From the NCBI GenBank assembly GCA_000092065.1, contig CP000589.1: 64,000 nucleotides of DNA, one strand, 5' to 3'. The translations under genes and the position numbers were made by a program. The notes below the pieces were generated by a model, which saw nothing but the letters and a program-made list of their open reading frames with translations, did no database searches and was not told the DNA's origin. Shown in pieces: positions 13,019 through 51,778 of the stretch. Each line of letters starts with the position of its first letter. Position 1 is the first letter of the stretch. The stretch comes from Ostreococcus lucimarinus. Its lineage: Eukaryota.

Positions 13019-15247
13019 ATGGCGCGAGGGGCGCACGCGCGGACGCGCTCGATGCGCGCGCTCGCGGTGACGCTGACGCTGACGCTGTCGCGATGGCGCG
13101 TCGGCGCGGCGATGACGACCGACGGTTTGACGTCGTCGGATCACCGATCGCGACGCGCGCGCGGCGACGAGGACGCGCGACGCGCGCGCGGTCGTCCGGC
13201 GACGTGGACGGCGTGCGCGGGTCCGTCGCGCGCGGCGCTCGAGCTCGCGTGGCGCGCGGAGACGCACGCGTCGGTGTACGCGACGCCGCTCGCGGAGGAC
13301 GTCGACCGGGACGGACGAGGCGCGGCGGTGACGCAGACGACGAGCGCGCGCGTTCGAGCGCACGACGGCGCGACGGGAATCGATTTAGACGGCGAGAGCT
13401 GGGGCGCGCGACTCGGCGCGGCGTCTCGGGGAGGCGTGGTGAGGATCGGGGAGGCGTACGCGAGCGCGTCGCTGGCGGGCGAGGCGAGGACGTTCGACGG
13501 CGAGCGAACGCGCGCGGTCGCGCGATTAGCGCCGCTGGCGATGGCGGTGGATTGGTTCGGTGACGATGGATCGGGGAAGAGCGACGCGGGCGATCCGCGC
13601 GAGGTTGAGCGGAGACACGAGGCGAGACGACGCGCGCCGGGATCGAGGCGGTTGTTGGACGTCGAAGACGAAGACGAAGAGGAAGAGCCGACGACGATGA
13701 GCGCGGAGGAAGAGGCGAGGAGCGATCGCGGTTGGGACGCGATCGATAGTGGCGGTGATTCGACGCGCGATGTCGCGAGTGGGTCCGTCGAGGCGCGGCG
13801 AGCGGTGGACGGACGAGTCTTCGTGGACGCGCACGCGTTGTGCACGCCCGCCGTCGGCGACGTGGACGGTGACGGCGAACCCGAGCTCGTGCTCGCGGTG
13901 TCGTATTATTTCGATTCTTCCGTGCGCTTTGAAGACGACGTCGATCCGAAGCAGTACGCCGCGACGGCGTTGGTCGTGTTGAACGGCGAGGACTTGTCCA
14001 CCAAGCGCTCGATCGCGCTCGATCAGAGCGCGGCGACGGCGCTGTTCAAAGCCAGAGCGTACGCCCCGCCGACGCTCGTCGATGTCGACGGCGATGGACG
14101 ATTGGACATCGTGATCGGCACGTACGCTGGCGTTTTGCACGTCGTGGACGGCGTTTCGGGGAATCCCTTGCCGGGATGGCCTCGACGGCTCGGACAGATG
14201 GAAGCGCAAGTCACCGCCGCGGACGTCGACTCGGATGGTGACATCGAACTCATCGCGTGCGACGTTCGCGGGACGGTGGCGGTGTTTAAATCGAACGGCG
14301 TCGAGCTTTGGAACAAGCACGTCGAGTCTCGGATTGCCGTCGCGGCGAGCGTAGGAGACGTCGACGGCGACGACGAAATCGAAATCGTCGTCGGCGACAC
14401 CTCTGGCGCCGTGCACGCGTTTCGCGCCAAAGACGGCACCGCACGCGAGCACTGGCCGGTGTACGTGGGCGATAAAATTCTCGCCCCGATCGTGCTCACG
14501 AAACTTCGTCAAACAAAACGCGGGCTCGATGTCATCGTCGCCACGCACGACGGCGTGGTGCACGTGCTCGAGGGCCGAAGTCGATGCCGCGACGTCTTTG
14601 ATATCGCCGAAAAGATTTACGCCGCGCCGTTTGTCACCTCTTTTGCCGGCTTCGGCGAACTCGACGTGATAATTTCCACGATGGAGGGTCACGTGCGCTC
14701 GTTCAAGGCGAAAGGGTCAAAGTTTAATGCGTTGGCGTTGACGTCGAGCGATCACGTGTCTCGCTACGATTATTTCGGTGTGGCGCTGTACGATCGCACT
14801 TATCGCGTCATTCGTGGAACGTACGTTGATGTGGTTTATGAAATCATCGATAGACGCGTGCTCGATCACGCCAAGGCGAGGAAATCGTCGCTCGCGCCGT
14901 ACAAGGTTGCGATTACGGTGACGAGTTTGGATGGTTTCAAGAAGATCGTCTCCGCTCGACACGATCGCGCCGGTCGGTACACGCTTCGGGTGGGCGTTCC
15001 ATCGACGAAAACGCGCGGGGAGATCCGAGTGCGCGTTCAAGATGTCAACTTGATCGCCGACGAAGACGCGTATTCGGTTTCGTTTCACGAAAATTACGAG
15101 ATCGCCTTGAAATGGCTCGTCGCCCTACCGTTTCTTCTCGCGAGCGCGGCGGCGATTCGGCGCGCGAGCGAAGACGCGCTCGAGATGGATGTCTTTGGCG
15201 CGTCAGCCTCGATTCCAACCACCACGAAGGGGATGCACGAGGAATAG
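13019..15247 (+). CDS. DEX1: DEX1-like (Defective in Exine Formation 1) secreted/membrane protein with FG-GAP/VCBS repeats and a C-terminal TM helix.
   Basis: Repeated VDVDGDGxxELV / [11 protein letters not shown] / [21 protein letters not shown] calcium-binding motifs. Signal peptide [14 protein letters not shown]-terminal [19 protein letters not shown]. The ORF is open from 12707, but that stretch overlaps UBC9 on the opposite strand, so the start is placed at 13019. Confidence 0.7.
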
Positions 15248-15255
15248 TAGTAGCT

Positions 15256-15861
15256 TTAGTTGTTCGTATATTGCACGTATGTATCCATTGACATGAATTC
15301 ATGTCCATTCTCGGCAGCCATCTCTTGCGTCTCGTCCCAAGGACACCCGCGCTCACGCGCGTACTTCAAACATTCCAACTCTCCATCCATGGCGGCAAGT
15401 GCGCACGTCCACTCGTTCCAGGGACATCCATTCTCGTGCGCGTACTTCAAACACTCCAATTGTCCGCTCCGGGCGGCATTCATGCACGTCCTCTCGTCCC
15501 AAGGACAGCCGTGCTCGTGCGCGTACTTCAAACATTCCAAATGTCCATTCCGGGTGGCGTAATAGCACGTCCTCCAGTCCCAAGGACACTCGCGCTCGTG
15601 CGCGTACTTCAAACACTTCAAATGCCCATTCATGGCGGCATTCGCAGACGTCCATTCGTTCCACGGAAAGTCGAGTCGCCGCGCCTCCTTCAGCTGCTCG
15701 AGATAGCCAAGTTCCGCGAGTTTTGAGCAAACTAAGCCGTCTGCATCGCGCTGCGGTCCGCGAGATACATTCTCGAGGCAAGTCTCGAGGCAATCGTGAG
15801 TCTGACTGGCCCGGCGCTTGATCAATTCGCGCAAACGCGCGTATGGGTCCTTCTTAGCCAT
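15256..15861 (-). CDS. Ankyrin-like 'GCPWDE' repeat protein (tandem ~33-aa repeats).
   Basis: Five tandem repeats of the form NGHLECLKYAHEHGCPWDERTCxxAA. The underlying DNA is a ~99-bp tandem repeat across 15300-15700. ATG at 15861. Confidence 0.6.
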   Translation of the reverse strand: MAKKDPYARLRELIKRRASQTHDCLETCLENVSRGPQRDADGLVCSKLAELGYLEQLKEARRLDFPWNEWTSANAAMNGHLKCLKYAHERECPWDWRTCYYATRNGHLECLKYAHEHGCPWDERTCMNAARSGQLECLKYAHENGCPWNEWTCALAAMDGELECLKYARERGCPWDETQEMAAENGHEFMSMDTYVQYTNN

Positions 15862-16251
15862 GTGTTTGAGAGTCGCGATGTGACCACCGACGTCGTTCTC
15901 GCGCGAGATCGAATACGCGACGGGATCAAACGCGCGCGACGACGAACGAGCGTCGACGTAAACGGGCGTTCGTACATGTAATTACATCACGCTTGAAACC
16001 GTTCGCGCCGAGCGGAGCCGGCGGTATCACGTAAAACATCAAAAAATTAAACAAAATACGTCGAGCGAGCGGCTCGCCAAAGCTCGCGCGCGATAATCGA
16101 CGCCGCCACCGAACGTTAAAACGTCCGTTTCGCGACGGCGCGTCACATCTCACGCGCGAGTTCACGCACGCTCACCCGAACGCTCGCGCCGATCTCTCGA
16201 GATCGCGTCGCGACGGTTAACCCAACAGCTTCTTGTAATTGTAATAGACGG

Positions 16252-16725
16252 TTAACCCAACAGCTTGACGATTTTCGCTTCGTTATCCGCCGCGCCGTCC
16301 CCGTTGCGTTCGACGACGTTTCCATCGCGATCCACCAAAAACTTACACGCAAAGTTCCATCGCACGTCGGATTCATCCCCCGACGCCTTTTTCAAGAACG
16401 TCCACACCGGCGACGCGTCCGCGCCGTTCACGTTCGTCTTCGCCGTCACCGTCGGCGCCGTCTCGAATTCTTGCTTCGCCACGAACGCCGCGATGTCCTC
16501 CGCCTTCGCCAGCTCCTGTCCCCCGAACTGCCCGCTCGGCGTGAGCACGACGACTAAATCCGGCGAGTACTTGTTCGACAAGTCGCGCAGCGCCGCGTAC
16601 TCGCGCTTCGTCGCGCCTCACCTGCTCGCGACGTTCGTCACGAGCACGACTTTGCCCTTCATCGATGCAAACTCGATCGTCGAGCCGTCGAGCGCGGGCG
16701 CGCGCAGGTCGTGGAACGCCGCCAT
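16252..16725 (-). CDS. GPX: Selenocysteine-containing glutathione peroxidase (GPX). The in-frame TGA at 16620..16618 is read as Sec. One continuous reading frame spans track ORFs 16618..17460 and 16252..16581.
   Basis: FHDLRAPALDGSTIEFASMKGKVVLVTNVASR-[TGA]-GATKREYAALRDLSNKYSPDLVVVLTPSGQFGGQE ... VNGADASPVWTFLKK...DVRWNFACKFLVDRDGNVVERNG. The TGA sits exactly at the catalytic Cys/Sec of the NVAS(K/Q)[C/U]G(x)T motif (human GPX1 VASLUGTT). An alternative upstream ATG at 16815 would add an R/A-rich possible targeting peptide. Confidence 0.75.
16618..16620 (-). other. In-frame UGA (selenocysteine) codon of the GPX gene.
   Basis: TGA flanked on both sides, in frame, by conserved GPX sequence. 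Confidence 0.7.
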
Positions 16726-16818
16726 CGCGCGCGTGACTCTTCCGCGCGCGCGCTTCGAGCGAGCGACGCGCGCGGGCGCGAACGAGCGAGCGAACGCGCC
16801 GAGCGCTCGCGTCATACT

Positions 16819-17508
16819 ATGACGCCGACGCCGATCTTCGGCCGCGTGTTCCTCGGCGCGCGCGCGCCGACGCGCGCGGACGCGCGGCTCGCGTGCGAGC
16901 ACGGACTGCGGTGCGGGCACAACTACCCGAGCGAGCTCGTCGGGACGTCGGACTGCGACGAGGAGGCGCCGGGACAGCGCGCGAGGTTGGAGGGACAGCG
17001 ACGACGGTCGTGGGCGATAGATCGCACGCGCGCGCGCGTCGGACGCGGCGCGCGCGCGTACGAACGCGCGGTGAAAGCGCTGAAGTCGTGGGAGCACTTC
17101 GATCTCGGTTGGGCGCGCGTGTCGCGAGAGAGCGGCACCGCGGTCGGGGACGCGGTGTGCGTCGAGGCGCGCGTGGCGGGCGTGTGGATGCGGAATCCGC
17201 TGCGCATCGTCGAGCTTCGCGAGCGGGAGAAGCGCGCGAGCGGAGGCGCGTCGTCGTCGTCCGGGGCGAGGGCGAAGGCGCGGTTCGCGTTCGCGCACGG
17301 GACGCTCGGCGGGCACTTGCTCGCGGGGGAGGAGCGGTTCTCGGTGGAGCTCGCGGAGGACGGCGAAGTGTTTTACGAGGCCTACGCGTTCAGCAGGCCC
17401 GCGCACGCGCTGAGCGTGGTGAGTTATCCGTTCGTGCGATTGTTGCAAAAGCGGTTTCACTGGGATTCGTCGCGGGCGATGCGTAAAATCTTGAGCGAGG
17501 CGGAGTAG
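16819..17508 (+). CDS. Conserved hypothetical protein (~229 aa).
   Basis: Non-repetitive sequence rich in aromatics (WEHFDLGWARVS ... FYEAYAFSRPAHALSVVSYPFVRLLQKRFHWDS). ATG at 16819 lies 4 nt from the alternative minus-strand GPX ATG. The track ORF begins at 16711. Confidence 0.4.
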   Translation: MTPTPIFGRVFLGARAPTRADARLACEHGLRCGHNYPSELVGTSDCDEEAPGQRARLEGQRRRSWAIDRTRARVGRGARAYERAVKALKSWEHFDLGWARVSRESGTAVGDAVCVEARVAGVWMRNPLRIVELREREKRASGGASSSSGARAKARFAFAHGTLGGHLLAGEERFSVELAEDGEVFYEAYAFSRPAHALSVVSYPFVRLLQKRFHWDSSRAMRKILSEAE

Positions 17509-50842: not shown

Positions 50843-51778
50843 TTACAACGAATCGTGGAGATCTTTCGCGGCTCGGCACGCGTCGATGTACTCTTGTTCG
50901 GTCATTTGTTCTTTGCGGGATTCGATGACGTTGAACATGGTTTCAAGACTCTTTCTTTGCTTGACTTTTTTGTCGTGCCTCTTGGCGAAGGCAATCGTCT
51001 CGGCGTCGCCGCTCTTTTCAGCCGACGCCAGTGTTTCGTCGTCCCAAGGACAGCCATTCTCGACCAAGTGTTTCAACACGCGGACAACGCCCTTTCTTGC
51101 TACGTTCCAAGTGGCTGTCTCACTCCAACCGCAACCGCACTCTCTGAGGAAATCGATACACTGTATTACCTCGCCCGGCTGTCCCCTCGCGGCATTGGCG
51201 CACACCGCACCTATGAACGCGCTTCCTCGCTCAACAATCATATTTTTCGCGTCGTCTTCTCGTTTCCTCTTCCTTCGTTTCGTCTGCTCTTGGTAGGCCT
51301 CGATGAGGAGCGTGATTCTCGTCACACTTGTATTCTGACACGCGGTATGCACGGCGTCGTAGTCCACTTCCAGACCGAGTTCCAACGCGTACTTGAAGCA
51401 CTGCATCTGCGTCGGCACATCCGTGGCTTCGCGCAATAGGTTCGGATGCAGAGCGCAGCCATTCTCCACGGCGTACTTCAGACACCGAATGTGCCCTCTG
51501 CGAGTCGCCAGAAGCGTCGTAAAGTCACAAAACGCGCCGGTACCGAAAGACAGCGTCTGCCCGCGTGGCCACGCGGCGGCGTCCGGCCACGACTCGCGCA
51601 ATATGCACGCACACGTCTCTGGATCGCCCGTGACATGCGCGCGATATTCGGTTGTTGGCATCCGTGCCGTTTCACGCCCGTACCGACGCCGCGCGGAGTC
51701 GTCGGTGCGGCGATGAGTGACGACGATAAGACCTCGGTTTAGCGAAATCGGCGAAACCGGGCACTGGGAACCTGGCAC
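50843..51778 (-). CDS. Second ankyrin-like 'GCPW' repeat protein, paralogous in repeat type to 15256..15861.
   Basis: IRCLKYAVENGCALHPNLL...CFKYALELGLEVD...LKHLVENGCPWDDETLASAEKSGDAETIAFAKRH. It is less regular than the first copy. Confidence 0.55.
   Translation of the reverse strand: MPGSQCPVSPISLNRGLIVVTHRRTDDSARRRYGRETARMPTTEYRAHVTGDPETCACILRESWPDAAAWPRGQTLSFGTGAFCDFTTLLATRRGHIRCLKYAVENGCALHPNLLREATDVPTQMQCFKYALELGLEVDYDAVHTACQNTSVTRITLLIEAYQEQTKRRKRKREDDAKNMIVERGSAFIGAVCANAARGQPGEVIQCIDFLRECGCGWSETATWNVARKGVVRVLKHLVENGCPWDDETLASAEKSGDAETIAFAKRHDKKVKQRKSLETMFNVIESRKEQMTEQEYIDACRAAKDLHDSL

Follow-up and report, generated by a model that had tools for sequence, protein, structure and literature searches.

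The GPX-family selenoprotein GpxC of Ostreococcus lucimarinus has already been catalogued (Lobanov et al. 2007, Genome Biol 8:R198, PMC2375036), and the SECIS elements of this alga have been described as a group. With a single exception, the SECIS of O. tauri and of O. lucimarinus are reported there to have G as the base preceding the quartet; a long mini-stem, present in almost all of them, is stated to be a hallmark. According to PMC3473315, the pattern that prevails in Chlamydomonas and Ostreococcus, and is typical of them, is GUGA_AA; it is the organism-wide default in Chlamydomonas reinhardtii and in the sponge Amphimedon. The canonical eukaryotic type-2 SECIS is represented in Rfam by SECIS_1 (RF00031), with the consensus AUGA_AA_GA.

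The DNA considered here (the window) is a stretch of 64,000 nucleotides of the O. lucimarinus contig CP000589.1, in which the positions 15862-16251 form the 390-nt 3′ intergenic region between GpxC and an ankyrin-repeat ORF (Table 1). We conclude, with a probability of roughly 0.93, that the 3′ UTR of GpxC carries one eukaryotic type-2 SECIS with a GUGA core, predicted from the sequence to occupy 16160-16083 on the minus strand. A SECIS of this type is an already known kind and ordinary for O. lucimarinus. In fact, compared with the Ostreococcus-type SECIS of PMC2375036, the organism and the gene are the same, the unpaired G, the long type-2 mini-stem, the AA(A) 10-13 nt from the core and the 3′ GA are held in common, and there is no difference in kind, so that what is supplied here are the exact coordinates and the structure. 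The element may be the same hairpin that Lobanov et al. detected; the accessible text and supplements of PMC2375036 give no GpxC SECIS sequence. With SECIS_1, the window SECIS shares the kink-turn-like UGA/GA quartet, helix I, the internal loop, a helix II close to 10 bp long, the unpaired adenosines, the mini-stem and the location in the 3′ UTR, but the base before UGA is G rather than A, the mini-stem is longer (7 bp) and the score falls below the reporting threshold. The SECIS of Chlamydomonas reinhardtii and Amphimedon have the GUGA_AA pattern alone in common with it, as they belong to other lineages and genes.

A sequence-only reading of this DNA had suggested that, if the in-frame TGA of the GPX gene encodes Sec, a non-canonical SECIS of GUGA type could lie in the interval. 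The Sec codon, the location and the GUGA core of that proposal hold, but the term “non-canonical” is unsuited to Ostreococcus, where G before UGA is the normal state and departs from the animal consensus only.

Table 1. Features of the GpxC locus and anatomy of the predicted SECIS (positions in the window)
Feature	Position	Strand	Details and basis
GpxC CDS	16252..16725	minus	157 codons, intron-less; ATG 16725, TAA 16254-16252
In-frame TGA, predicted Sec codon (codon 36, NVASR-U-GATKREY)	16618..16620	minus	translation and orthologue alignment
GpxC TAA stop codon	16252..16254	minus
Tandem duplication of 35 bp: 20-bp repeat GACGGTTAACCCAACAGCTT at 16212-16231 and 16247-16266, with 15-nt AT-rich filler TATTACAATTACAAG	16212..16266		spans the stop codon
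Complete type-2 SECIS, helix I to helix I (predicted)	16083..16160	minus	descriptor, folding, covariation; begins 92 nt past the stop codon
Helix I, 5′ arm CUCGCGCGUGA	16150..16160	minus	11 bp with 16093-16083
Short internal loop G-A-U between helix I and core		minus
SECIS core, 5′ side: unpaired G16146, then U16145 G16144 A16143 (GAUGUGACGC)	16143..16146	minus	descriptor and fold
Quartet U16145-G16144-A16143-C16142 opposite C16099-G16098-A16097-U16096		minus	tandem sheared G·A pairs and U·U (predicted geometry)
Helix II, 5′ arm GCGCCGUCGC	16132..16141	minus	10 bp with 16100-16109
Bulged G16131 and unpaired AAA 16130-16128		minus	AAA 12 nt past the core A
Apical mini-stem, 7 bp (16127-16121 with 16116-16110), UUUA loop 16120-16117	16110..16127	minus
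Helix II, 3′ arm GUGGCGGCGU	16100..16109	minus	fold pair list
SECIS core, 3′ side: C16099 G16098 A16097 U16096	16096..16099	minus	GA faces the 5′ GA
Helix I, 3′ arm UCGCGCGCGAG	16083..16093	minus	fold pair list
UUUAA, candidate poly(A) signal variant	16047..16051	minus	conserved in L014; putative
UGUAA in palindrome ATGTAATTACAT, candidate poly(A) signal	15982..15986	minus	putative
Ankyrin-repeat ORF	15861-15256	minus	Pfam Ank_4, 2e-14
DUF1990 gene	16819-17508	plus	divergent from GpxC; product identical to XP_001419485.1 (O. lucimarinus CCE9901)

The identity of the gene is well defined. Its translation scores 90.4 bits against the Pfam family GSHPx (PF00255; cut-off, 27), and both NVASR-U-G and RWNFACKF (the WNF motif) are found in it. 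It is the “O. lucimarinus GpxC” of the supplementary alignment in PMC2375036, where U stands at the position of the TGA; the same source lists a 561-nt O. lucimarinus GPX at Chr_9 80255-80815, a length that was taken as matching. The same locus, with DUF1990-GPX-DEX1 synteny, was found in relatives from marine metagenomes by searching at the protein level and by a single metagenome scan. Four other lineages have TGA where GpxC has it, L003, L025 and L026 have Cys there (NVASKCG), and the GPX frame and the active-site motif are kept across the TGA in five lineages. On these sequence comparisons, the TGA at 16620-16618 is predicted to encode Sec.

On its minus strand, the interval 15862-16251 holds no ATGA, as had been pointed out, and in fact none occurs on this strand from 15634 to 16372. 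From the minus-strand frequency, 1.2 ATGA would be expected in 390 nt and none would be found with a probability of about 0.30; the absence of the motif from the interval is thus unremarkable. GTGA is found there six times, with the G at 16175, 16165, 16153, 16146, 16030 and 15990. Three of these motifs (16153, 16030 and 15990) had been listed before and are real, but the true core, 16146, had been missed, 7 nt after the listed motif at 16153.

This core emerges from a search with the descriptor NTGA_(10-13)_AA_(15-39)_GA of PMC2375036, which was coded with added helix checks. A single match was obtained in the UTR, with the core at 16146, d1 = 12, d2 = 30, a helix II of 10 bp and a helix I of 11 bp; the spacing of 12 nt from the core to AA and of 30 nt from AA to GA lies within both rules (10-13 and 15-39, respectively). 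Membership in the class is defined by an (A/G)UGA facing a 3′ GA at the base of helix II, and this arrangement is seen in G16146-U-G-A16143, which is placed opposite G16098-A16097. The UGA codon precedes the core by 472 nt. The minimum free energy of the hairpin 16160-16083 is −47.2 kcal/mol (z = −3.7), and the SECIS-form fold, in which the core is forced open, has −46.3 kcal/mol, that is, 0.9 above the minimum.

Regarding the matches to be expected by chance, 300 dinucleotide shuffles of the window produced 0.002 minimal matches per 390 nt, a figure that falls to 2e-5 per 390 nt when the minimum lengths are set at 10 bp for helix II and 8 bp for helix I. When the UTR itself was shuffled 5000 times, 19 of the shuffled sequences had any descriptor match at all. 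When both strands of the 64-kb window were scanned, one further match was found, weak or marginal, at 26368-26323 on the minus strand. Its core is CTGA, its helix I measures 5 bp, and its helix II measures 8 bp and contains 2 mismatches; it is of chance quality, with 0.6 such matches expected per window.

The same scan bears on two other locations for the element. It is highly improbable that the SECIS is built on another GUGA of the UTR (16153, 16030, 15990, 16175 or 16165): all five motifs are GUGA, lie on the correct strand and are found downstream of the stop codon, but none of them fits the NTGA_AA_GA spacing together with the helices of the descriptor. Additionally, comparison with a close relative, L014, shows that the motif at 16153 is GCGA there, and its bases belong to helix I; the motifs at 16030 and 15990 fall in a 781-bp segment that is missing from L014 and from every other syntenic relative; and the region of 16175 and 16165 has diverged in L014 (GGGCTAGCGCGAAC). 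We give almost no credence to a distant canonical AUGA SECIS, reached through a longer UTR or by read-through into the ankyrin gene. There is an ATGA at 15633-15630 on the minus strand, within the ankyrin ORF, but the descriptor has no match of AUGA type on either strand of the whole window, Rfam has none either, and relatives that still encode Sec lack the ankyrin segment, which was inserted in this lineage specifically.

Five lineages are informative for the SECIS predicted at 16160-16083, namely L014 and groups B, C, D and E; a further sequence, L002 (87% amino acid identity), stops at the stop codon and covers no UTR. L014 has 94% amino acid identity, and its protein clusters with that of O. 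lucimarinus at the 90% level. Its SECIS is identical except for the change of U16152 to C, which turns the U16152·G16091 pair of helix I into C-G, and the flanking UTR has diverged. In group B (L010, L015-17 and L027; Sec), GUGA, AAAA and UGAU are present and the sequence of helix I is unrelated. In group C (L018-24; Sec), helix II and the mini-stem are clearly homologous, the core is AUGA and helix I is different again. In group E (L029-38; Sec, TNVACK-*-GAT), which has about 65% GC and an intron, GUGA, AAA and GA-U are found, with one bulge in helix II. In group D (L003, L004, L025 and L026), where the codon is Cys, no such SECIS was found downstream; in L003, the distance from the stop codon to the convergent gene is 133 nt. 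The hairpin accompanies TGA codons exclusively and is absent from genes with TGC or TGT.

The structure is also supported by covariation. When four elements are aligned with MAFFT, standard pairs make up 98.9% of the cells and 9 pairs are changed on both sides, while in the control, with the partner strand slid, 30-56% are paired. MAFFT misaligned group E, whose elements were therefore aligned by hand and whose inclusion rests on that alignment. In the resulting hand alignment of seven elements, 156 of the 157 cells are paired (99.4%) and 19 of the 28 pairs are changed on both sides, figures that are somewhat inflated because this alignment was fitted to the structure. The UGA, the AAA and the GA-U are invariant across its seven elements (five lineages), and four lineages have G before UGA, the remaining one having A. 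Helix I is wholly different in sequence between lineages and keeps its pairing, and the changes in helix II also keep pairing.

These comparisons weigh on a further explanation, in which the hairpin would be a generic GC-rich structure of the transcript end, or one that confers stability, the TGA would be a true stop and the gene would be a pseudogene or truncated. The genome is GC-rich and abounds in stable hairpins and CG palindromes (there are 133 perfect 12-nt palindromes in the window), and Rfam calls no SECIS at the hairpin. However, the frame and the GPX active-site motif persist past the TGA in five lineages, UGA, AAA and GA stay invariant at SECIS spacing while the stems covary, the hairpin accompanies the TGA codon and not TGC or TGT, and GpxC is already on record as a selenoprotein. 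We consider this explanation very unlikely.

Searches with covariance models, which had been recommended as a check of the interval, did not bear fruit in the window: Rfam cmscan at E ≤ 10 gave no SECIS match in 15200-16900 or in 16060-16185, which means that SECIS_1 is without a match even at this threshold, and the whole window gave nothing at the gathering thresholds. The gathering score of SECIS_1 is 35 bits, and the window SECIS does not attain it. The AUGA orthologue of group C (L019:1948-2030) is recognised by SECIS_1 with 24.9 bits (E = 0.0034), also under the gathering score, and the alignment of the model puts AUGA, AAA and GA at the positions assigned here. Since SECIS_1 matches the group C orthologue at the same positions, the SECIS annotation may be transferred to the window element by homology. 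We suspect that SECIS_1 misses the latter because the model underweights the algal forms with GUGA and a long mini-stem. Our own covariance model, R1, which was made from four orthologues, recovered only its own relatives and missed the elements of group E, which are high in GC and Micromonas-like; in the window it revealed no other SECIS, the remaining matches (up to 21 bits) being GC-rich hairpins. Rfam also gave nothing on L011, L028, L039 and L040. These sequences come from more distant Sec-GPX, and plausible AUGA or GUGA elements may be recognised in them by eye.

By analogy with other eukaryotes, the kink-turn core of the SECIS would be bound by SBP2, which would recruit eEFSec and Sec-tRNA[Ser]Sec, and the ribosome would then read the UGA at 16620-16618 as selenocysteine and not as a stop. 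For this to occur, the element has to be part of the transcript. In O. lucimarinus, the main poly(A) signal is UGUAA and its commonest variant is UUUAA (PMC6413133), and because the first plausible signals of the region, UUUAA at 16051-16047 and UGUAA at 15986-15982, are both downstream of the SECIS, the GpxC mRNA should include it, as far as can be deduced from their positions.

The second of these candidate signals lies in the 12-nt palindrome that had been noticed at about 15975-15986; the palindrome, ATGTAATTACAT, is real, but its position was one base off, as it occupies 15976-15987. It is one among the 133 of its kind in the window, most of the others being CG-rich, and it carries UGUAA on both strands. 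Through this UGUAA, GpxC transcripts may stop short of the ankyrin gene. As a part of the SECIS the palindrome was discarded, since it sits in the lineage-specific insertion 15261-16041.

This insertion comprises the ankyrin gene and a 180-bp upstream region (781 bp in total); L014 has 12 nt in its place, and the segment is missing from every other syntenic relative as well. As it carries an ankyrin gene and is absent from all the relatives, it is a recent, lineage-specific insertion that separates GpxC from the convergent DEX1-like gene. The stop codon of the ankyrin gene (15258-15256) is just 8 nt from that of the DEX1-like gene (15245-15247). It had been proposed that an ankyrin-like gene starting at 15861 bounds the 3′ region of GpxC, and the Pfam assignment agrees with this. 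Another ankyrin-repeat ORF, with 27-39% amino acid identity to the one adjacent to GpxC, is found at about 50945-51526 on the minus strand.

At the other end of the interval, the direct repeat described as 18 bp long over the stop codon exists, but it measures 20 bp, its coordinates were 1-3 nt off and it forms part of the 35-bp tandem duplication of Table 1. The two copies of GACGGTTAACCCAACAGCTT, spaced 35 nt apart, match exactly, which is far beyond chance. L014 has a single copy of the repeat and a TGA stop codon in place of TAA, and the duplication is present in all the O. lucimarinus-like metagenome contigs (L001, L005-L009, L012 and L013). It is lineage-specific. The repeat was rejected as a functional part of the SECIS because L014 lacks it and because the second copy lies out of frame, without an evident role.

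The CCE9901 lineage has gained, in the 3′ region of GpxC, the duplication across the stop codon and the ankyrin insertion, the latter about 40 nt beyond the SECIS. Regarding the base before the quartet, G is found in O. lucimarinus and in groups B and E, and A in group C, and SECIS_1 sees the A form only. A tentative and rather doubtful suggestion is that this base switches between G and A within one and the same Mamiellales GpxC SECIS, and that the 3′ region of CCE9901 was recently remodelled, with the poly(A) site perhaps moved. If this were true, the GpxC locus would offer a natural test of the weight of the pre-quartet base, as well as seed data for a model of algal SECIS.

Beyond annotation, the significance of these results is small: the SECIS of a selenoprotein already on record is given exact coordinates and a structure, and the UGA at 16620-16618 is to be annotated as Sec. 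They also point to a pitfall, as a search for AUGA, or with Rfam SECIS_1 alone, overlooks the standard SECIS of prasinophyte green algae. In the automated gene calls, GpxC is broken at the UGA. For instance, just the ORF of 98 or 109 amino acids that follows the UGA is called in L001 and L005-L009, and in the public calls a separate fragment of 35 or 65 amino acids is sometimes called too. GpxC is therefore mis-annotated throughout metagenome collections.

Other characteristics of the locus were observed in passing. Codons ~61-72 of GpxC (16510-16545) read LTPSGQFGGQE, while the relatives have FPC(D/N)QFGGQE or FPSLQFGGQE, so that the usual Phe-Pro-Cys/Ser-Asn before the catalytic Gln is altered in O. 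lucimarinus. An intron follows soon after the exon with the Sec or Cys codon in groups C, D and E (L019, L026, L031 and L003), and none is found in O. lucimarinus, near 16560-16620 of the window, or in group B. Finally, 93 very GC-rich nucleotides separate the ATG of GpxC (16725, minus strand) from that of the DUF1990 gene (16819, plus strand), and this spacer is probably a shared bidirectional promoter.
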